Shown: one piece after another, positions 1 to 8,220 of the stretch
Layout: the number at the start of each line of letters is the position of its first letter
How positions within the stretch are numbered: position 1 is the stretch's first letter
Virus record (IMG/VR): IMGVR_UViG_2778261515_000002
Span: 1-8,220 of that record
Strand: one strand, 5' to 3'
DNA length: 8,220 bases
Source: a virus
Lineage: Duplodnaviria > Heunggongvirae > Uroviricota > Caudoviricetes
Made by a program: the position numbers and the translations under genes
The notes under the pieces: generated by a model
The model's database searches: none
Seen by the model: the letters and a program-made list of their open reading frames with translations, nothing else
What the model was told of the DNA's origin: nothing

Positions 1-1
1 A

Positions 2-484
2 TCAGTCTCTCGCTTTTAAAAGCTCCGCCAGCGGATCAACATCATCCGGTCCGGCGGTATTTACTTTCGCCCGGCTTGCCGGTGACATACCAAATTCTGC
101 AAGCATCGCCCGGATCCGCTTCCAGGCATCCGCTTTCATCGCAGCAGCCGGGTGTGCCTTAATCAGCACATCACCGTTCTGCGTTTCCGTGCGGTAGGTA
201 TACCCCTCAACATCGAGTGTTTCGCAGTGATGCCGGTATTCGGTGTAGGCTTCCACCAGTAACTCGAGTGCACGCGCATCAAGCTGAGAAATGATCCCTT
301 CCGCATTCAGTTCTTCCGCCATTCGCCTGAACCAGTACTTCCCCTGCGACCCTAAATGTTGCGGAATTTTAGGGAGACATTTTTCATCCTTTTTAGCGGT
401 TTTTTTTGGGTCTTTAACGGGGCGCTTTGAGGGGTTGCCTCGTATCAAATGCAGGCGTGGCGGGGTTTTCAGGGGTCCTGACAT
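2..484 (-). CDS. Phage terminase small subunit (P27/HK97-type TerS)
   Basis: 160-aa ORF with ATG at 484-482 and TGA at 4-2. Basic N-terminus (KRPVKDPKKTAKK) and a KAHPAAAMK motif resemble P27-family small terminases. Sits directly downstream of an HNH endonuclease gene, as in HK97-like packaging modules. Family assigned from motifs and context, not from a search. Confidence 0.75.
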   Translation of the reverse strand: MSGPLKTPPRLHLIRGNPSKRPVKDPKKTAKKDEKCLPKIPQHLGSQGKYWFRRMAEELNAEGIISQLDARALELLVEAYTEYRHHCETLDVEGYTYRTETQNGDVLIKAHPAAAMKADAWKRIRAMLAEFGMSPASRAKVNTAGPDDVDPLAELLKARD

Positions 485-631
485 AATCGGTTTTACCTAT
501 CAATCATTTAATCACATTCCAAAAAAAAGTTTTCGAACCTGCGGCGATGCGAGGAAAGGTCAGGCGGCGGTACTGAGCAGCCTGGGTTGCAGAAATTTGA
601 CCCGCCCCTCCCCTGCAGGTGAGAACAATTA

Positions 632-982
632 TCAGTTGATACGTTCGCGCGCAGTTTTTGCTTTATGGCAGGGCCAGCACAGACTCTGCAGGTTACTGTC
701 TGCATTCGTGCCACCATGAGCTTTCGGAATGATGTGGTCCACAGTTCTGGCTTCAACGGCTCTCCCATCGCGCAGGCAGTTCTGACACAGATGATTATCA
801 CGCTTCAGTATGCGCGCACGTATGGCATCCCATTTCGAGCCATAGCCACGCTGGTGGCGGCTCAGTCCGCGTTGGTGCTGCACCCAGCCTTCACCCCGAT
901 GTTTATCGCAGTAGCCAGAGCTGTCTGTTGTTGTGCCTGCGCAGCCTCGCTTACGACATGCGCGGGGGATTTGTGGTGGCAT
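632..982 (-). CDS. HNH endonuclease (packaging-associated)
   Basis: 116 aa from ATG at 982-980, with AGGAG about 9 nt upstream (the track ORF starts at an upstream GTG at 1018). Contains CxxC pairs and the HNH core DHIIPKAHGG...N...CWPCHKAK. Stop TGA at 634-632. Confidence 0.8.
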   Translation of the reverse strand: MPPQIPRACRKRGCAGTTTDSSGYCDKHRGEGWVQHQRGLSRHQRGYGSKWDAIRARILKRDNHLCQNCLRDGRAVEARTVDHIIPKAHGGTNADSNLQSLCWPCHKAKTARERIN

Positions 983-1024
983 AGAATTTCGCTCCTCTAA
1001 AAAATATTCTGCTCTCACCGTCGG

Positions 1025-1207
1025 TCAGTTCTGCATACACTGTCGGACACTATCAACAATTTCGCAGACCTGAGAAGCTGTATCGAAAAGCTGGCGCGCC
1101 TTATCCAGGCTGACGCATCCCACCAATAAAAAAGGCACCAGTATCGCTACCAGTGCCCATTTCGCCGCCGTTCGCGGCATTCTATGTGTCCAGTGTTTTC
1201 TGCTCAT
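1025..1207 (-). CDS. Small lipoprotein, possible o-spanin-like lysis accessory protein
   Basis: 60 aa from ATG at 1207-1205 (AGGTG upstream; alternative ATG at 1180). N-terminal signal peptide with lipobox LLVG-C; short Cys-containing mature part. Lies immediately after the endolysin, where Rz1-type lipoproteins sit. No i-spanin partner seen. Confidence 0.45.
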   Translation of the reverse strand: MSRKHWTHRMPRTAAKWALVAILVPFLLVGCVSLDKARQLFDTASQVCEIVDSVRQCMQN

Positions 1208-1221
1208 AACACACCTGGTTA

Positions 1222-1602
1222 TCAGCGTTTCAACTGAAAGTGAGGCCCGTCTTTCAGTGTTTTCCAGTCCCCGCCCCATTCGATGGCAGTTCCCAGCTCT
1301 GCGGCAGCCTGCTTAAATGCCTGTGCGATTTTCTCGTACAGAGGCCAGTCCCATGACACCTGGCTGCCAACATAAGCCACAACATCCACCGCATCACCTG
1401 TAAGGTGGCGGCTGTTCATGGTCTGGCTTTTCCCTGCCGCTACCAGCTGTTTCTGGCGATACTTACTGCGCAGACCTTCCGTGATACCAAAATCAACCTC
1501 CGTCAGCTCCAGCGCACGGCGAACGACAGCAACCAGCTGTGGTTTGACGCCCTCCAGATTTTTTTCACTGCGACGGCTGAATCTGAATTTACCCGGCATC
1601 AT
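1222..1602 (-). CDS. Endolysin, peptidase M15 family (L-alanyl-D-glutamate peptidase type)
   Basis: Track ORF starts at GTG 1608; in-frame ATGs at 1602 and 1599 follow AGGTGA, and 1599 has the better spacing. Zn-peptidase motifs SRHLTGDAVD and DGPHFQ are typical of M15 endolysins. Stop TGA at 1224-1222. Confidence 0.8.
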   Translation of the reverse strand: MMPGKFRFSRRSEKNLEGVKPQLVAVVRRALELTEVDFGITEGLRSKYRQKQLVAAGKSQTMNSRHLTGDAVDVVAYVGSQVSWDWPLYEKIAQAFKQAAAELGTAIEWGGDWKTLKDGPHFQLKR

Positions 1603-1604
1603 AT

Positions 1605-1880
1605 TCACCTCAACAATGGAAAGATTTTTGTGACGTTCCCGCGTGCGCGTATCACCAGCACGCAGAACAGCAGGTTAAAAAACACTTCCAGCCAGCCCGT
1701 TGCTAACGGGCGACCACACAGATAGCTGAGGGGGGCAAAGGCATAAAGCAGCATCAGCAGCCAGGCCAGCCATGACATCAGCGGTTTGTGTCTGGAGTCA
1801 CGACGACGATAAAAAAAGAGCGTCAGCACGATAACCGTGCATAACGCCACATTCAGCAATCCGGGAAGGTTACTTAACAT
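1605..1880 (-). CDS. Small membrane protein (2-3 TMDs), holin-like or antiholin/lysis-timing candidate
   Basis: 91 aa from ATG at 1880-1878 with a strong GGAGGAGG SD 5 nt upstream. Hydrophobic segments LLNVALCTVIVLTLFFY, LMSWLAWLLMLLYAFAPLSYL and WLEVFFNLLFCVLVI, with a basic C-terminus. Its stop (1607-1605) abuts the endolysin start. Overlaps the upstream holin by 11 nt. Confidence 0.5.
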   Translation of the reverse strand: MLSNLPGLLNVALCTVIVLTLFFYRRRDSRHKPLMSWLAWLLMLLYAFAPLSYLCGRPLATGWLEVFFNLLFCVLVIRARGNVTKIFPLLR

Positions 1881-2262
1881 TGCCGCCTCCTCCACCCCGC
1901 AGGCGGGAGAACACACCGGACACCAGTGATGCAATATCCTGCTGGTGGATGAACGACAGAATCTTCACCGACACCACCGATACCAGCACCGCACACAGCG
2001 CATCTGCCGATGTACCGTCATACCCTGTTTTTGATGCAATCCAGGCTGACAGCACGCGCGCCCCCAGCACGCCGATAATGAACGACACAAGAAAATGCGC
2101 CACCACACGCCAGGCTGAAAGCGCCTGCGGCATCGTTGCCACAAATAACGCCCCGGCGAACGCACCAAACACAATCCCGAAATCCGTTCCGGTAAACAGC
2201 CCGAATACCGTCGCCCCGCCGAGCGCCGCAGCCGTGCCGGAACCGGACAAGGGTTCAGACAT
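1870..2262 (-). CDS. Phage holin, class I-like (three predicted TMDs)
   Basis: 130 aa from ATG at 2262-2260 with AGGAG about 9 nt upstream (track ORF extends to an upstream alternative start). Three hydrophobic helices and a charged C-terminal tail (SRLRGGGGGNVK). First gene of the lysis cassette. Confidence 0.55.
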   Translation of the reverse strand: MSEPLSGSGTAAALGGATVFGLFTGTDFGIVFGAFAGALFVATMPQALSAWRVVAHFLVSFIIGVLGARVLSAWIASKTGYDGTSADALCAVLVSVVSVKILSFIHQQDIASLVSGVFSRLRGGGGGNVK

Positions 2263-2276
2263 ACTTTTTTCTCCTG

Positions 2277-2303
2277 TAAATAAAAAAGGGCCACCAGCGG
2301 CCC
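2277..2303 (-). terminator. Intrinsic terminator immediately upstream of the holin gene
   Basis: On the minus strand the hairpin GGGCC-GCTGGT-GGCCC (2288-2303) is followed by TTTTTTATTT, ending about 15 nt before the holin SD. Confidence 0.5.
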
Positions 2304-2430
2304 GTAAAAAAACACCCGTCAAAGGCACCCGCAGATGCCTTTTGTGTGGCGTTACCTGATGTGATGTGCGCTGGAGGTAGCGCGGAGAAAATGAAATAAG
2401 ACTTACCGGAAATTAAGGTCAATCTGAGGA

Positions 2431-2459
2431 TTTAAACCATTTTTAAAGCTTAGTAATAT
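2431..2459 (+). promoter_or_regulatory. Candidate sigma70 promoter for a plus-strand small transcript
   Basis: TTTAAA (2431-2436), 17-nt spacer, TAATAT (2454-2459). Consensus match judged by eye only. Confidence 0.3.
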
Positions 2460-2465
2460 CAACTC

Positions 2466-2614
2466 GTCTCCGGAAGGAGACCGATACTTATTCTTCTTCA
2501 CGGACTTTGTCCCGCGGCGTTAATCCGACAGCCGCGCTTTTTTTGCGCCATATTCATCGCTGACTTACATGGCATTGCCACACGGACATTATCAGTGTCC
2601 GTGTTTTCTTTTTT
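2466..2614 (+). ncRNA. Candidate small RNA, about 150 nt
   Basis: Bounded by the candidate promoter and a strong plus-strand terminator. Begins with a GGAA tetraloop hairpin GTCTCC-GGAA-GGAGAC (2466-2481). No plus-strand ORF with an SD in between; the interval holds an internal hairpin plus T7 (about 2509-2543). Confidence 0.3.
2581..2614 (+). terminator. Intrinsic terminator (plus strand)
   Basis: Perfect 8-bp stem CACGGACA / TGTCCGTG with 7-nt loop (2581-2603), followed by TTTTCTTTTTT (2604-2614). Confidence 0.6.
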
Positions 2615-2626
2615 CGAATTAAGAAT

Positions 2627-2651
2627 AAAAAAAACCGCCAGATACGGCGGT
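2627..2651 (-). terminator. Intrinsic terminator (minus strand), convergent with the plus-strand terminator
   Basis: On the minus strand the hairpin ACCGCC-GTATCT-GGCGGT (2634-2651) is followed by eight U (plus-strand A-run 2627-2634). Likely ends the tRNA/methylase transcript. Confidence 0.6.
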
Positions 2652-3013
2652 TGGTCAATGCAAGGAATGAATTTTTTAATTGTAATAAAATCGAGGCGTC
2701 GGGTGCCTCCCGAAGTATTCCGTCCTGTATGAATACTGTGGTTTCCCGCTAAACCGACTCTTTTAACCACCCTCGCCCTGAGGAGCGCCCCGATAGTGTT
2801 ATTTACAACACCAGAATGATGCATCACCGACCCTGCCAGGAAATACAAAATCTCCACCAGCAATGCACCATTCTGCTGCCGTAAAAAAATCAGCACTGAG
2901 GCTAACCTGGCCTCAAATCATAGCCAGAGAACAGAATGCTTTTTCAAAACAACCTGCTCCCACGTAATAAAAATACGCCAGTGCTGCAATACAATAAGGC
3001 TTATTTCAAATGC

Positions 3014-3088
<75 letters not shown>

Positions 3089-3094
3089 ATATAG

Positions 3095-3167
3095 TGCCGA
3101 TTACCGGAATCGAACTGGCGACCCGGTGATTACAAGTCAGTTGCTTTGTCTGCTAAGTTAAATCGGC
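3095..3167 (-). tRNA. tRNA-like gene, tRNA-Thr(UGU)-like, non-canonical (possible pseudogene)
   Basis: Reverse complement is GCCGATTTAACTTAGCAGACAAAGCAACTGACTTGTAATCACCGGGTCGCCAGTTCGATTCCGGTAATCGGCA. Perfect 7-bp acceptor stem (GCCGATT/AATCGGC), T-loop TTCGATT, and anticodon loop CTTGTAA (anticodon TGT). But the D and anticodon stems have mismatches, there is an A-C mismatch in the T stem, and the 3' tail is CTA rather than CCA. Lies 6 nt from the tRNA-Gly. Confidence 0.4.
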
Positions 3168-3348
3168 AACGGTTCCTCGGAAAAAATAAAACGACCGATA
3201 TATGCATTATTTCCCTGTCATCTCCTCGGAACCGACTATCGATATTAATGAGGGCAAACACTATTTCAATAAACATAGTGTCAATATTAGTAAATATATG
3301 TATAAATTTCTATCACTCGTGATTGATTACAAATAATCACACACATAT

Positions 3349-4395
3349 TTAACTATTTTCTTTTATTTCGCTTACAGTCTGGTTAAATCTCTCTTCTTCC
3401 AGCTCCACACCTATTGCATGCCGTCCCAGCGATAATGCTGCTTTTATTGTTGATCTCGACCCCATAAAAAAATCAGCAACCAAATCTCCCGGATGGCTGC
3501 TGGCGGTAATTATCTGACGCAACATATCCGCCGGTTTCTCACAGGGATGTTTGCCGGGGTAATACTGCACAGGCTTGTGCGTCCAGACATCCGTATACGG
3601 AACGGCAGCCGATACGGAAAAATAACGCCGCAGAGATTTGTACTCATCCAGCAGGCTGGCATATTGCCGGTTCAGTTCACTGTATGTGCTGACCAGCTGG
3701 TGGTGTGGCTTTTCCAGTTCACCGCGCTGATGTTTTTCTGCTGCAACACGCGCAAACAACGCCTGTAATTTCAGATAATCGCCTTCGTTCGGCAACTGCC
3801 ACTGACTGGTACCAAACCAGTGCGAAGCCATGTTTTTCTTTCCGGTGGCTTCCGCTATCTGTTTTGCCGTTATCCCCAGTGATTCACGCGCATCACGAAA
3901 GTAAGAAATCAGCGGGGCCATGACGTGCTGTTTTAGTTCACGCCCCTTTGCCGCATAGCCGTCATTTTTGGGCAGGTATGGCCCCTGATAATGTTCTGCA
4001 AACAGAATGCGTTCTGTTGCCGGGAAATACGCCCGCAGGCTTTCCTTGTTGCATCCGTTCCAGCGCCCGGACGGCTTCGCCCAGATAATGTGGTTCAGCA
4101 CATTAAAGCGTTCACGCATCATGATTTCGATATCAGATGCCAGGCGATGACCACAGAACAGGTAGAGACTTCCGGCAGGCTTCAGTACCCGCCAGAACTG
4201 CGCCAGACATCGGTCCAGCCATTTCAGGTAATCATCGTCGCCCTTCCACTGGTTATCCCAGCCCTCGGGCTTCACTTTAAAGTATGGCGGGTCTGTGACT
4301 ATCAGATCGACAGAATTTTCCGGTAAGGTCTGGATAAATTCCAGGCAATCAGCGTTGATTAACTCACAACTGGATATTTTTACAGTATTAGTCAT
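3349..4395 (-). CDS. DNA methyltransferase, beta-class (N6-adenine/N4-cytosine family, DPPY motif), no restriction partner in window
   Basis: 348 aa from ATG at 4395-4393. Motif IV (LIVTDPPYF) lies near the N-terminus and the SAM-binding motif I-like segment (DFFMGSRSTIKAA) near the C-terminus; this circular permutation defines beta-class amino-methyltransferases. DPPY rather than SPPY favours N6-adenine. No restriction endonuclease gene is adjacent. Confidence 0.85.
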   Translation of the reverse strand: MTNTVKISSCELINADCLEFIQTLPENSVDLIVTDPPYFKVKPEGWDNQWKGDDDYLKWLDRCLAQFWRVLKPAGSLYLFCGHRLASDIEIMMRERFNVLNHIIWAKPSGRWNGCNKESLRAYFPATERILFAEHYQGPYLPKNDGYAAKGRELKQHVMAPLISYFRDARESLGITAKQIAEATGKKNMASHWFGTSQWQLPNEGDYLKLQALFARVAAEKHQRGELEKPHHQLVSTYSELNRQYASLLDEYKSLRRYFSVSAAVPYTDVWTHKPVQYYPGKHPCEKPADMLRQIITASSHPGDLVADFFMGSRSTIKAALSLGRHAIGVELEEERFNQTVSEIKENS

Positions 4396-4535
4396 AGATC
4401 AATAAGCACTTCTCTGATAGGCTCATACCGCTTTTGCGCAAAGCAGATGGGCCTGAGGTTTGCTTGTGACCCCAACGCATGAGCAGATGGCTGGCAGGTG
4501 CCGCTAACACCCACCAGCCGCCCATTACCACAAAT

Positions 4536-4559
4536 TAAAAAGCCTTCACTGCGGAAGGC
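4536..4559 (-). terminator. Intrinsic terminator after the small HTH gene
   Basis: On the minus strand the hairpin GCCTTC-CGCAGT-GAAGGC (4542-4559) overlaps the stop codon and is followed by TTTTTAATTT. Confidence 0.5.
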
Positions 4560-4743
4560 GTCTGTAACAACCGAACTGATAATCAGCCAGACCTGCCATA
4601 ACAAGCTGGGTCAGTATTAACTGGCAACGTTCGCGTGAAAGGTACGTATTCTGCGCAATTTCCCCGACGGTCGCCGGCTCGGTGACGCTTAATTCATTAA
4701 ACACCACTCTGGCGGTTTCGGTCATATCCTGCTGTTTTAGCAT
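4546..4743 (-). CDS. Small winged-helix DNA-binding protein, FaeA/PapI-like (putative regulator)
   Basis: 65 aa from ATG at 4743-4741 with AAGGGA 7 nt upstream (track ORF starts at an upstream TTG). The segment PATVGEIAQNTYLSRERCQLILTQLVMAGL has the helix-turn-helix pattern of FaeA/PapI-type regulators. Has its own terminator. Family assignment is by pattern recall only. Confidence 0.45.
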   Translation of the reverse strand: MLKQQDMTETARVVFNELSVTEPATVGEIAQNTYLSRERCQLILTQLVMAGLADYQFGCYRRLPQ

Positions 4744-5191
4744 GTCTTTTTCCCTTATTCCGGTTAACGTGACATACCAATAACTCTTGTCGAAAAAGCC
4801 AGCAAGCTGAAAGACCGGTATTCGCAACCACCAGCGCGTTTAACGTACTGCGCCGCTTTTCGGGCATAAAAAACCCCGTTTGGCGGCTGGTTTAAGCTGT
4901 GTGGCAAAGTGACCACTCTTAACATCATATTTAAATTTTTACGTACGTAAACCAGCACGAATTTACATTATAAAATACAAAAACAATAACTTTTCATTAC
5001 ATTTCAGAAGCGCATCTCTCATTACAAAAACATCGTCAATAATTACCAGTACGCATAAACGAGATCTTGATCACACTTTGAACCATTAAATAAACTCCAT
5101 ATCTTGAAATAGCCATACCGATTAGATGTATATTTAGGCCGCAGTGACAATATTTTTTAATAATAGTTCCGAAAAGGACTAAGGATTCACG

Positions 5192-6289
5192 ATGAAAAAA
5201 TTAACAGTGGCAATCTCTGCTGTAGCTGCGTCAGTATTAATGGCGATGTCTGCTCAAGCAGCAGAGATTTATAACAAAGACAGCAACAAACTGGATCTGT
5301 ACGGAAAAGTTAATGCCAAGCACTACTTCTCCTCTAACGATAAACACGATGGTGACAAAACTTATGCTCGTCTGGGCTTCAAAGGCGAAACCCAAATCAA
5401 TGATCAACTGACTGGTTTCGGTCAGTGGGAATATGAATTCAAAGGCAACCGTGCTGAATCTCAAGGTTCTTCCGGGGATAAAACTCGCCTTGCATTCGCT
5501 GGCCTGAAATTCGGTGACTACGGCTCCATCGATTATGGCCGTAACTACGGTGTAGCATACGACATCGGTGCGTGGACTGACGTTTTGCCAGAATTCGGTG
5601 GTGATACCTGGACTCAAACCGACGTATTCATGACTCAGCGTGCAACTGGTGTTGCAACTTACCGTAATAACGACTTCTTCGGTCTGGTTGATGGTCTGAA
5701 CTTTGCTGCTCAGTACCAAGGCAAAAACGATCGTAGCAAGCTCGATAACTATACCGAAGGTAACGGTGATGGCTTCGGTTTCTCTGCTACCTATGAATAC
5801 GAAGGATTCGGTATTGGTGCAACTTATGCGAAATCTGACCGTACCGACACTCAAGTTAATCTAGGGAAAGTTCTTCCTGGAGTATTTGCTTCCGGTAAAA
5901 ATGCAGAAGTTTGGGCCGCTGGTCTGAAATATGACGCTAACAACATTTACTTGGCCACTACCTATTCTGAAACCCAGAATATGACGGTATTTGCTGATCG
6001 CTTCGTCGCTAATAAAGCTCAGAACGTTGAGGCTGTTGCACAATATCAGTTCGATTTTGGGCTGCGTCCGTCCGTGGCTTACCTGCAATCTAAAGGTAAA
6101 GATCTCGGAGTATGGGGCGATCAAGACTTAGTTAAATATGTTGATGTAGGCGCAACCTATTACTTCAACAAAAATATGTCTACTTTCGTTGATTACAAAA
6201 TCAACCTGCTTGACAAAAATGATTTCACCAGAGGTCTTGGTATAAACACCGACGATATTGTTGCTGTCGGTATGGTTTACCAGTTCTAA
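5192..6289 (+). CDS. nmpC: Outer-membrane porin, OmpC/OmpF/PhoE family (prophage NmpC/Lc type)
   Basis: 365 aa from ATG 5192 with AAGGA SD 7 nt upstream; TAA at 6287-6289. Signal peptide [23 protein letters not shown] followed by [16 protein letters not shown], and a C-terminal ...VAVGMVYQF beta-barrel signature. Opposite strand to all phage genes, immediately downstream of Q as in DLP12 and PA-2. Codon usage looks host-optimised. Confidence 0.9.
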
Positions 6290-6310
6290 ATCTTTTTATT
6301 AAAAAAGATA

Positions 6311-6340
6311 TGTTGTGGGAGATATTTATCTCCCACAACA
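6311..6340 (-). terminator. 30-bp perfect palindrome, candidate tR'-type terminator downstream of Q
   Basis: TGTTGTGGGAGATA-TT-TATCTCCCACAACA is a perfect inverted repeat. On the minus strand it is followed by TATCTTTTTTAAT; on the plus strand it is not followed by a U-tract. Lies about 140 nt downstream of the Q stop codon. Confidence 0.45.
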
Positions 6341-6427
6341 TGTGGGTGACGCCCTCACGTCACTGCATTAAGAAAGACATTTTGTCTTTTCTTTTTAACC
6401 TTCTGTTATTTATTACTCTAAACTCTT

Positions 6428-6456
6428 GGGGGCGTTTTTGCGTCCCCTTTTTTATT
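6428..6456 (+). terminator. Intrinsic terminator of the porin gene (plus strand)
   Basis: Stem GGGGGCG / CGTCCCC with loop TTTTTG, followed by TTTTTTATT. Confidence 0.55.
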
Positions 6457-6478
6457 CAATTTTACCAGCAAACGTTAA

Positions 6479-6862
6479 TCAATAACATCTAACAACTTCA
6501 AGATCCATCTCGAGACGAACATCCAGTGCCATCAACATTCCGTCGACTATTCCTTCAGCCTTCTGAAGTTTTTTTCCTATATATCCATCAGAACAATGAT
6601 GCTTACGGGCCAGTGCCATAAACGTCATACCAGCCACATAATAATCTACCAGCAAATCATGCAAATCACTGTTGTTCTTTTTCAAACGAGCCATACACCC
6701 ACAAATAACCATTGCGTCATCATCACTACATTGCGGTCGCGATTTAACCTTTGAAGGAATAAGTCCCTTGAATCCGGCTGCAATCGATGACCAGGTGACA
6801 TCCTCATGATTATTTGCCACCCATGCCCCCCAACGCTCAAGAACCATCTGAATATCACGCAT
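6479..6862 (-). CDS. Late-gene antiterminator Q (small Q family, quuD/phage-82-like)
   Basis: 127 aa from ATG at 6862-6860 with AGGAGGTG SD upstream. Begins [14 protein letters not shown] and contains the Cys-rich segment [18 protein letters not shown]. Located before the porin as in DLP12 (quuD-nmpC). Confidence 0.8.
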
Positions 6863-7119
6863 CAGCGCAGCACCTCCTGCACCAGTTTTTCAAACTTTCC
6901 AACTCTGGTTTCCAGCTCTGCCACACAATCCACCAGCTCATCCACCGCTTTTTGTGCGCGGTGTTTCGCCTGCATCAGTTCCCTGAGCGCTGGCACCATA
7001 TCCCGACGAATGGCATCTTTTGTTACACCTGTTTTTTCCAGTTGTTCCGCCTGTCGCAACATTTCCTGTGCCTGTTTACGTAATTGTTCAGGGGTAAAAG
7101 GTGTTGTCTGGTTGTTCAA
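6862..7119 (-). CDS. Hypothetical small coiled-coil protein
   Basis: 85-aa ORF whose first codon is TTG (7119-7117), overlapping the helicase stop (TTGA); its stop overlaps the Q start (TGATG). The first in-frame ATG is at 7062 (66-aa alternative). Strongly helical, charged sequence; no recognised family. Confidence 0.4.
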
Positions 7120-8220
7120 AAGAAACGCTCCATCTTACTGCTGTCAGTTCGTTTGTTGCTGTATCTGCGCGGCTGGGGCTGCTGCATTGGGGTAGAAAGA
7201 ATCTGTGCGCTTTCCTGATCCACAGGCAGAAAATGTCCGTTATAAAAACGCCGGTAAATCGTTCCCAGAGAACCGTTACGTTGTTTCGTGATATTGATTT
7301 CTGCGATGCCCCTGGCCTGCGTATCCGGGTTGTACACTTCATCCCTGTAAAGCATCAGAATGATGTCTGCATCCGCCTCTATTTCTCCGGAATTTTTCAG
7401 GTCTGAGTTCATGGGGCGTTTATTGGGCCTGGACTCCACACCGCGGGAGAGCTGACTCAACGCAACCACCGGTAATCCGCCGGATTTTGCCAGGCCTTTA
7501 AGCCCCTTTGAGATTTCACCCACGGCAAGGTCATGACGCCCCGTGCTCCGGGTTTTTATCAGCCCGAGATAATCAACCACCACCAGCGCCGTTTCCGGAT
7601 GTTTAATCAGGTGGTGTTTCGTTGTTGCGTATATCTCGTCAATGGTCAGGTTCGCCTGGTCCACCATCCAGATATTGCGCCCGGTCATCCGCCCCACTCC
7701 TTGTGAGAAACGTGCCCAGTCTTCGTCTTCAAAGTGAGTGACAGATTTCAGGCGTGATACCGGCATTCCTCCAGCCGCAGATACCATGCGCTCACCAATC
7801 TGGATGTTCGCCATTTCCATTGTGAACAGAAGAACACCATGCCCCTGCTCAGTCACCTTGTCGATGATATCCAGCGCCAGTTCGGTTTTACCCATCGAAG
7901 GACGAGCCGCAATAAATACCAGGTCGCCGGGTTCCATACCGCCTGTTTTTGCGTCCAGTTCATCAATACCGGTCATCAGCGTCCTGGATTTCTCCAGCCC
8001 CTGATTCCGGCATTCAACACGTTCAACCACTTCCGGAAGCACATCATCAATATGTACCGGCTGAATAATACCCTTCCCCGTCGACAATGAGGCCATCATG
8101 TTCTGCGCATCCTTCAGAGCATCTTCAGCTGCTTCACAGGTATGCGCATCACGTAATTTCTGTAATGAACCGCCCCGGAAATCCTGGAGACTAAACTCCC
8201 TGAGAAAGAGGTAAACAGGA
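7116..8220 (-). CDS. DnaB-family replicative DNA helicase, 5'-partial (N-terminus beyond window end)
   Basis: The frame is open from the window edge (8219) to TGA at 7118-7116, about 367 codons in the window. DnaB C-terminal RecA-like domain with Walker A (IAARPSMGKTELA), the ...LMTGIDELDAKTGG... linker and ...ADADIILMLYRDEVY... The track ORF begins at an internal Met (8099). Confidence 0.85.
   Translation of the reverse strand, partial: PVYLFLREFSLQDFRGGSLQKLRDAHTCEAAEDALKDAQNMMASLSTGKGIIQPVHIDDVLPEVVERVECRNQGLEKSRTLMTGIDELDAKTGGMEPGDLVFIAARPSMGKTELALDIIDKVTEQGHGVLLFTMEMANIQIGERMVSAAGGMPVSRLKSVTHFEDEDWARFSQGVGRMTGRNIWMVDQANLTIDEIYATTKHHLIKHPETALVVVDYLGLIKTRSTGRHDLAVGEISKGLKGLAKSGGLPVVALSQLSRGVESRPNKRPMNSDLKNSGEIEADADIILMLYRDEVYNPDTQARGIAEINITKQRNGSLGTIYRRFYNGHFLPVDQESAQILSTPMQQPQPRRYSNKRTDSSKMERFF

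Follow-up and report, generated by a model that had tools for sequence, protein, structure and literature searches.

Of all the steps of phage lysis, disruption of the outer membrane is understood least, and no spanin could be identified in about 13% of the phages of Gram-negative hosts (PMC6139136). In the same survey, Kongari et al. 2018 placed phiP27, an Stx2e phage of Escherichia coli, among the 'separated' two-component spanins. The inner-membrane subunit (i-spanin) was listed at NC_003356 20348-20542 (64 amino acids (aa), 32 periplasmic residues) and the outer-membrane subunit (o-spanin) at 20706-20861 (51 aa, 30 periplasmic residues). With 62 periplasmic residues this pair is the shortest of 528 spanin systems, and both proteins are singletons in the family tables (PMC6139136). 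In a survey of 279 Stx phages the Rz pham was found in 277, and the two Stx2e phages, which form cluster C, are alone in having a metallopeptidase endolysin together with a classical holin (PMC8136144). Because cluster C carries this endolysin and holin, the two phages without Rz are probably the Stx2e phages. Work on porcine Shiga toxin-producing E. coli has shown that replacing the gene for a 130-aa putative holin, WP_032083190, abolishes enrofloxacin-induced Stx2e release and that expression of the gene restores it (PMC12571312). Here, the lysis cassette of a phiP27-type prophage is described from an 8,220-nucleotide (nt) stretch of DNA (positions 1 to 8,220 of IMG/VR record IMGVR_UViG_2778261515_000002, referred to in full length as the window), with emphasis on a small lipoprotein gene at the end of the cassette.

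A candidate outer-membrane protein at the end of the cassette

A 60-aa prolipoprotein is encoded by the final gene of the lysis cassette (Table 1). There is about an even chance that this is the protein responsible for the outer-membrane step, which would make it o-spanin-like in targeting and position but lacking a cognate type-II i-spanin. Several observations argue for this role. The gene is the last of the cassette, starts 14 nt past the endolysin stop codon with its own Shine-Dalgarno sequence (AGGTG, 1216-1212, 4 nt ahead of the ATG) and accompanies the lysis module. Phage P88 has, behind a homologous M15 endolysin gene and in the equivalent position, a canonical i-spanin/o-spanin pair of the overlapped kind. 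The prophage contains no other spanin candidate, the two Stx2e phages are probably the Rz-less ones among the Stx phages surveyed (PMC8136144), and the phiP27 homologue was independently called an o-spanin by spanin specialists (PMC6139136). No sigma-70 promoter match was found between the endolysin and lipoprotein genes.

The precursor has a long and basic n-region (MSRKHWTHRMPRTAAK), followed by an h-region and a lipobox ending in L-V-G-C. Up to the cleavage site it reads MSRKHWTHRMPRTAAKWALVAILVPFLLVG, and the next residue, Cys31 of the LLVG-C lipobox, is encoded at nt 1117-1115. The mature protein is only 30 residues long, proline-free and with a net charge of -1. Because the +2 residue is Val, as in the window, or Ala or Thr, and not Asp, the lipoprotein is predicted to be sorted to the outer membrane. 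It thus has the features of an o-spanin subunit, namely a signal peptidase II (SPII) signal, a lipobox Cys and no inner-membrane retention residue at +2. In an AlphaFold2 (AF2) model, residues 12 to 59 form a single helix, modelled with low confidence (pLDDT 65). Hydrophobic residues in the mature part occur at a heptad-like 3-4-3-4 spacing, and Cys48 (mature residue 18) is aligned with the hydrophobic positions, an arrangement that would allow disulfide-linked oligomers. An intramolecular Cys-Cys loop is equally possible, since the Cys-Cys spacing shifts by one residue in distant homologues. The hydrophobic moment of the mature part was marginally above that of shuffled sequences (p 0.04), and that of the homologues was not above shuffles.

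Two other start sites were considered. Many gene callers lengthen the lipoprotein gene to an 84-aa open reading frame (ORF) that starts at 1279, inside the endolysin gene. This start was rejected: the 24 codons that it adds are located in frame +1 of the endolysin gene and could not be encoded in relatives that have TA57, a small membrane-protein gene, directly upstream of the lipoprotein gene. An internal start at Met10 would give a 51-aa form; many homologues have Ile, Val, Thr or Gln in place of Met10, whereas codons 1-9 are conserved in protein sequence, with a ratio of nonsynonymous to synonymous substitution (dN/dS) of 0.19. The 60-aa form is therefore preferred for the window, and the 51-aa form is possible in some relatives. 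The gene is often unannotated or mis-framed (L001 2525-2713, and H39, H45, H48, H49 and L005 3001-3204 in E. coli genomes): several genomes annotated by PGAP have no coding sequence there, and the RefSeq record of phiP27 annotates L32 in another frame over the gene.

The window belongs to a phiP27-type E. coli prophage whose temperate-phage late genes all lie on the minus strand. Over a 1,331-nt cassette query, the window shows 99.9% identity to a prophage that E. coli rl0044 carries next to ssrA, and 93% identity to phiP27. Full virion genes are present in the prophage, and the window carries no toxin gene. On the minus strand the lysis module is read in the order holin, second holin-family protein, cytoplasmic M15 endolysin and lipoprotein. 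An earlier note, made from the sequence alone, had given these genes in the same order within 1025-2262, and its description was accurate in every particular. The holin, described there as having three transmembrane domains (TMDs), has three hydrophobic segments and belongs to Phage_holin_8, with a PF16931 score of 81.7 bits against a curated cut-off of 26.4. The cloning primer used for WP_032083190 (PMC12571312) matches the start of this gene. The second membrane protein begins within the last 11 nt of the holin gene (1870-1880), as the note had it, and belongs to Phage_holin_3_7 (77.9 bits, cut-off 25.4). Its PF05449 gene is always accompanied by PF16931 in relatives, and the protein is probably a co-holin or antiholin. 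The endolysin is an M15 peptidase, scoring 48.4 bits against PF13539 (cut-off 25) and carrying the zinc-ligand motifs SRHLTGDAVD and GPHF (pattern SxHxxGxAxD ... H). Its closest solved structures are ChiX (5opz, E 1e-43) and the T5 L-Ala-D-Glu peptidase (2mxz, E 4e-23), along with the L-Ala-D-Glu endopeptidase 8q2g, and its N-terminus, judged by eye, is hydrophilic with no evident signal or signal-arrest-release sequence. An HNH endonuclease gene, the first of the HNH/terminase packaging genes, starts 42 nt past the lipoprotein stop codon and marks the downstream border of the module.

Search for an inner-membrane partner

The earlier note had reported neither an Rz/Rz1 pair nor an embedded Rz1 frame, and both absences were borne out. 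When positions 500-2500 were scanned in six frames for lipoboxes and hydrophobic segments, nothing came up but the four known genes and spurious frames with no signal sequence. The same scan of the whole 42-kb prophage, from integrase to tail fibre (L006 2300-44300), revealed neither a type-II protein with an N-terminal TMD and a hydrophilic periplasmic domain nor, on the late-gene strand, a further lipoprotein candidate. The three remaining lipobox matches of the prophage lie on the opposite strand; they are an SPFH-domain lipoprotein of the early region, which is the only other annotated lipoprotein, a 62-aa ORF adjacent to it and a 47-aa GTG ORF antisense within the tape-measure gene. No spanin is annotated in the prophage by PGAP, tblastn with the P88 spanin pair and with the published phiP27 'i-spanin' detected no similarity, and an Rz/Rz1 pair was found in none of the related loci examined. 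A hidden i-spanin or Rz1 in an alternative frame is thus excluded by the scans of region and prophage. Neither the region nor the whole prophage has the embedded, overlapping or adjacent type-II inner-membrane subunit of a two-component spanin, and the total of 30 mature residues falls short of a combined periplasmic length bridging both membranes. The lipoprotein is therefore the only candidate in the prophage for the outer-membrane step, a role for which the earlier note had already considered it.

The published phiP27 pair requires separate comment. By tblastn, the listed o-spanin is the homologue of the window lipoprotein (92% identity over 60 aa). The listed i-spanin ORF (L001 2844-3038) has a TTG start and lies inside a 479-bp insertion between the endolysin and lipoprotein genes that is absent from the window. 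Of 5,426 complete E. coli genomes, 3 have this insertion and 316 have the lipoprotein gene. For comparison among viruses, 80 IMG/VR loci sharing the holin pair were collected, with the second holin-family protein at least 98% identical; the i-spanin ORF is present in two of these 80 contigs. It has no PHROG match, and a conserved 90-aa ORF (phrog_36812) occupies the opposite strand. Where this 90-aa gene has diverged to about 46% identity, the opposite strand keeps no i-spanin-like ORF. As a missed partner of the window lipoprotein, the published i-spanin was rejected on these grounds: a rare insertion, a TTG start, no family, a conserved gene on the opposite strand and an ORF not kept in relatives. 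Judged from these sequences the published ORF is probably spurious, an annotation artefact, which would leave the window lipoprotein an orphan with no cognate i-spanin. The lipoprotein is already catalogued as an o-spanin, though its entry relies on a partner that these comparisons do not bear out. The earlier note had allowed that the lipoprotein might prove to be a known spanin with a partner that had been overlooked. The first half of this came true, in that a homologue is published as an o-spanin, whereas the published i-spanin is absent from the window and probably spurious, and no real partner was missed.

The lipoprotein gene in related cassettes

At least 650 nt downstream of the endolysin gene are retained in 76 of the 80 loci (counting L072, in which the M15 gene is truncated), and the lipoprotein gene is present in 71 of these 76. 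The five loci that do not have it are rearranged or truncated. In 29 loci the lipoprotein gene directly follows the endolysin gene with a 14-nt gap identical to that in the window. In 35 loci a small protein whose TMD is C-terminal (TA57/TA71, phrog_4493/1115) is encoded directly upstream of the lipoprotein; six loci have the 90-aa antisense gene inserted between endolysin and lipoprotein, and one has another insert. The TA57/TA71 proteins are 57-71 aa long with a basic N-terminus, and the gene of the commonest form ends 4 nt before the lipoprotein start. They could be accessory lysis factors, comparable in size to Lcc6 of LambdaSo.

These arrangements bear on whether the lipoprotein is one half of a non-canonical two-component system, in which it bridges to the 91-aa PF05449 protein, to the PF16931 holin or, in relatives, to TA57, with the partner doubling as i-spanin. 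This reading, which is quite improbable, draws on the short predicted periplasmic segments of both holin-family proteins, on a Cys that the predicted topology of the 91-aa protein places in a periplasmic loop, on the two invariant periplasmic Cys of the lipoprotein and on the position of TA57. However, lipoprotein homologues follow a PF05106 lambda-S-type holin and an M15 endolysin with no PF05449 gene in the stretch from holin to lipoprotein (L101/L102), and this weakens the suggestion of the earlier note that the lipoprotein and the 91-aa protein together form a spanin. TA57 is absent from the window, from 29 of the 80 close loci, from Yersinia and from the metagenomic cassettes L101-L103, and its basic N-terminal tail predicts an N-in topology that would leave almost nothing of it in the periplasm. 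In addition, 30 residues cannot reach the inner membrane while the murein is intact.

The lipoprotein gene is kept under a wide range of cassette changes. It is present whether the endolysin is of the M15 or the GH108 type (in Yersinia it overlaps the GH108 gene by 4 nt) and whether the holin is PF16931 with PF05449 or the lambda-S-type PF05106. It is found with siphovirus, sheath-bearing and Mu-F-type virion modules, in at least four named genera, and it remains when LT-II toxin genes or a moron for a lipopolysaccharide (LPS) heptose phosphatase are inserted after the endolysin gene. Retention across changes of endolysin, holin and virion fits a third lysis function better than a regulator with one partner or a receptor-specific exclusion protein. 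Periplasmic antiholins such as T4 RI do exist, and the lambda spanins are dispensable in shaken culture with no added divalent cations. Another reading has the lipoprotein as a periplasmic regulator of lysis timing, an antiholin or endolysin modulator, in phages with no dedicated outer-membrane step, and the relatives that have no lipoprotein gene altogether would be in keeping with this. The chance of it is slim, given that the gene is retained with either of two holin types that are unrelated and with either of two endolysins of unrelated fold, and that predicted sorting to the outer membrane sets the protein apart from the holin.

The endolysin-lipoprotein junction is an insertion hot spot, at which LT-II enterotoxin A/B genes, an LPS core heptose(II)-phosphate phosphatase gene or the 90-aa gene of phiP27 are found (Table 1); Stx2e or pertussis-like toxin genes lie upstream of the holins in relatives. 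Small phage lipoproteins with roles in envelope modification or superinfection exclusion are well known, and the earlier note had raised a Bor/Cor-like or exclusion lipoprotein as an option. A non-lysis lipoprotein acting in the manner of Bor/Iss, Cor or T5 Llp could have settled at this moron-prone end of the lysis module, where iss is also nearby, and the window lipoprotein has no homology to any spanin family. This explanation is retained at lower weight and is considered unlikely. There is no Pfam, PHROG or NCBIfam match placing the lipoprotein in the Bor/Iss, Cor or Llp families. The tight coupling to the endolysin gene, by a 14-nt gap or a 4-nt overlap with no sigma-70 match, fits it poorly, as does the co-variation of the lipoprotein with the lysis module and not with the tail or receptor-binding modules. 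The terminator-like hairpins upstream of the holin would moreover imply expression only under Q antitermination.

Homologues of the lipoprotein form 160 protein clusters in Enterobacteriaceae; the named ones are from Escherichia, Salmonella, Citrobacter, Cronobacter and Yersinia, and none has a functional name. An exhaustive HMMER profile search of 1.84 billion representatives yielded 23 clusters at 50% identity, essentially all of them small proteins of the same kind. No match was found in Pfam or NCBIfam, the sole strong PHROG match was phrog_7528 (function unknown), and a PDB profile search gave noise only. The whole-family alignment was too variable to seed a scan, and one-genome-per-species contigs scanned with the divergent subfamily gave nothing. 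Across 38 unique alleles dN/dS was 0.26 overall and 0.18 for the mature part, as compared to 0.20 for the holin and 0.10 for the endolysin. Selection on the protein, at a level comparable to the holin, is a further argument for a role in the outer-membrane step. Cys31, Cys48 and Cys57 are invariant among 19 close homologues from the five named genera. When distant metagenomic members are added, only Cys31 and Cys48 remain invariant columns, with the third Cys displaced by one position. Most of the signal peptide is also invariant in close homologues, and the unusual n-region M-x-R-K-H-W-T-H-R-x-P is conserved. The 160 homologue clusters, the overall dN/dS, the invariant lipobox Cys and the two further Cys demonstrate that the lipoprotein gene is a real gene under purifying selection and not a chance ORF.

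A terminator-like RNA hairpin is embedded in the signal-peptide codons (-19 kcal/mol, z -3.4). In the hairpin, 1 of 11 degenerate codons was changed relative to the distant homologue L103, as compared to 16 of 24 elsewhere in the gene. The corresponding counts for L101 were 0 of 10 and 13 of 22. For these homologues, which are about 60% identical, the contrast between the hairpin and the rest of the gene at synonymous sites has a Fisher p of about 0.002, and the substitutions observed in the hairpin fall in the loop or preserve pairing. The nearly frozen synonymous sites explain the abnormal invariance of the signal peptide across genera, and the selected element might mainly be the RNA hairpin or terminator, with the peptide of minor importance. 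This is very improbable: outside the hairpin the mature part has a proportion of synonymous differences (pS) of 0.30 and yet a dN/dS of 0.18, so the protein itself is selected, the two Cys do not vary in close homologues, and distant ones have kept an open reading frame. Located in the last lysis gene, the hairpin may be a terminator overridden by Q or an element of RNA stability or translation. Terminator-like sites are enriched in positions 400-3000 as a whole (11 observed against 3.4 +/- 1.9 in shuffles). The hairpin closest to the holin start codon is presumably read through by Q-modified polymerase.

Other features of the window lie upstream of the cassette. The tRNA-Gly(UCC) gene occupies the place of ileZ/argO and stx2e in phiP27. 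Between it and the holin gene an annotated 132-aa 'hypothetical protein' has no NCBIfam match, overlaps terminator-like hairpins and may be non-coding. An OmpC-like porin gene sits between the Q antiterminator and a DNA methyltransferase gene and resembles the Lc/NmpC porins found in lambdoid prophages. Just beyond the window, an IS3-family element interrupts the replicative helicase gene, and this copy of the prophage is probably replication-defective as a result.

Table 1. Positions of features in the window and of selected features in related sequences.
Sequence	Feature	Position	Strand	Remarks
Window	HNH endonuclease gene, first packaging gene	632..982	-	PF01844 E 5e-16; PGAP annotation of identical prophage
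Window	60-aa prolipoprotein, last lysis gene	1025..1207	-	Lipobox, Shine-Dalgarno sequence; phrog_7528 'unknown function' E 2e-38
Window	Terminator-like hairpin, 11-pair stem, GCGA loop, then U-tract	1123..1158	-	Codons 17-28 of lipoprotein signal peptide
Window	M15 zinc peptidase endolysin, 125 aa	1222..1599	-	PF13539 Peptidase_M15_4; phrog_465 endolysin E 1.6e-74
Window	Second holin-family membrane protein, 91 aa	1605..1880	-	PF05449 'putative 3TM holin' E 6e-22; phrog_217 holin; three predicted TMDs
Window	Holin, 130 aa, Phage_holin_8 family	1870..2262	-	PF16931 E 6e-23; phrog_198 holin; three predicted TMDs
Window	GC-rich terminator-like hairpin and T-run	2288..2303	-	Late-gene sense strand; ends about 16 nt before holin start codon
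Window	132-aa 'hypothetical protein'	2498-2896		
Window	Second strong terminator-like hairpin and T-run upstream of holin	2633-2652	-	From scan
Window	tRNA-Gly(UCC)	3014-3088	-	
Window	OmpC-like porin, 365 aa	5192-6289	+	Annotated ompC
Window	Q antiterminator	6479-6862	-	
Window	Replicative helicase	7116-8099	-	Continues past right end; L002 13117-15331
L091	Insertion at endolysin-lipoprotein junction	4902-6039		
L095	Insertion at endolysin-lipoprotein junction	4876-5457		
L005	Insertion at endolysin-lipoprotein junction	4038-4613		
L001	Insertion at endolysin-lipoprotein junction	2714-3192		
L010	TA57-type gene	2126-2296		Not in window
L003	TA57-type gene	3188-3361		Not in window
L004	TA57-type gene	3188-3403		Not in window

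Proposed mechanism and comparison with known systems

A route to the outer membrane can be proposed from these features. The lipoprotein is transcribed and translated with the late lysis genes, as the short gap, the Shine-Dalgarno sequence and the lack of a matching promoter between the genes show. Its signal, lipobox and +2 residue predict export by Sec, lipidation and cleavage at Cys31, and sorting through the Lol system to the outer membrane's inner leaflet. Beyond the lipidated Cys, the remaining 29 residues may form an oligomerising amphipathic helix, possibly by way of the two invariant cysteines. Following holin triggering and murein removal by the endolysin, the lipoprotein would destabilise or fuse the outer membrane, either alone or with a host or holin partner.

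A number of points weigh against a role in the outer-membrane step. The mature part is far too short to span the periplasm and no inner-membrane partner is present, so the membrane-fusion model of spanins cannot hold without modification. If the lipoprotein acts on the outer membrane, it must do so after murein removal, alone or with a partner other than a classical i-spanin. The lipoprotein is predicted to be helical and is proline-free, as Rz1 is not, and its slightly negative net charge is unlike that of the cationic disruptin. The family is narrow, with its 23 clusters among 1.84 billion proteins, and a few related cassettes, in Raoultella (L098/L099) and at rearranged E. coli loci, have no lipoprotein gene. 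About half of the related cassettes carry TA57 upstream, and this could be a partner that the window has lost. With the helicase gene disrupted, the window copy of the lipoprotein gene may not be in use. In the literature, no experimental test of the lipoprotein was found.

A more specific proposal, put forward tentatively and regarded as rather doubtful, is that the lipoprotein acts by itself, as a helical peptide held by its lipid in the outer membrane's inner leaflet, and disrupts this membrane once the murein is lost. This would be a third route of finishing Gram-negative lysis: having no inner-membrane partner it would not be a spanin, and having no cationic charge it would not be a disruptin. 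Were this so, the 'shortest spanin pair' of the spanin catalogue would be a misannotation and the spanin database would need correction, and a new, very small outer-membrane-active module would be at hand in a genetically easy host. If the lipoprotein instead has no role in lysis, the phiP27-type phages belong to the truly spanin-less group. The cassette is common in E. coli and adjoins genes for Stx2e, LT-II and pertussis-like toxins; the release of Stx2e is under the control of its holin (PMC12571312).

Among described systems the o-spanins are an obvious point of reference. Lambda Rz1, P2 LysC and the 'PhiP27 o-spanin' of SpaninDB share with the window lipoprotein an SPII signal and a lipobox with no Asp at +2. 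As in o-spanins, the mature domain is very small, periplasmic cysteines are conserved, and the gene is the last of the lysis genes, directly after the endolysin gene. The differences are the missing cognate type-II i-spanin and a mature part of 30 residues that is predicted to be helical and has no proline. In addition, the family is a singleton in the SpaninDB survey (PMC6139136) and belongs to phrog_7528, of 'unknown function'. The unimolecular spanin gp11 of T1 is likewise the product of a single gene at the end of a cassette with an N-terminal lipoprotein signal. In contrast to gp11, the window lipoprotein has no hydrophobic segment or C-terminal TMD after Cys31, ends 29 residues past this Cys and cannot anchor in both membranes.

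The disruptin gp28 of phiKT, a cationic peptide that takes the place of spanins, is comparable as a small product prone to form a helix which, in a phage with no spanin pair, could act on the outer membrane (10.1101/515445). The window lipoprotein differs in having a secretion and lipidation signal and a mature charge of -1, and it does not class as a disruptin. No similarity in sequence was detected. Braun's lipoprotein Lpp is a small lipoprotein of the outer membrane that is helical and has heptad-like spacing, as is predicted here for the window lipoprotein. The profile match to Lpp is weak; it covers the signal, the lipobox and the first 11 mature residues (hhalign probability 55%), is dominated by the signal peptide and is not significant. 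The window lipoprotein is half as long as Lpp and has no C-terminal Lys for murein attachment, so this likeness serves as a lead only. Similarity to Lpp or to the P88 o-spanin was rejected as a basis for assignment; in each case only the signal and lipobox region aligns, not significantly.

The ChiWXYZ cassettes of Serratia, of the type 10 system that secretes chitinase, offer the last comparison. The window endolysin is closest to the endopeptidase ChiX among solved structures, although the window lies in a prophage with full virion genes and itself carries no toxin gene. The Serratia and Yersinia cassettes of the ChiWXYZ type have a canonical spanin pair, unlike the window cassette. A further likeness is that phiP27-type cassettes adjoin toxin genes (Stx2e, LT-II, pertussis-like) and that the holin is needed for Stx2e release (PMC12571312). 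A ChiX-like endolysin, adjacent toxin genes and holin-dependent release of Stx2e, reported in 2025, together hint at a module that serves toxin release besides phage egress.

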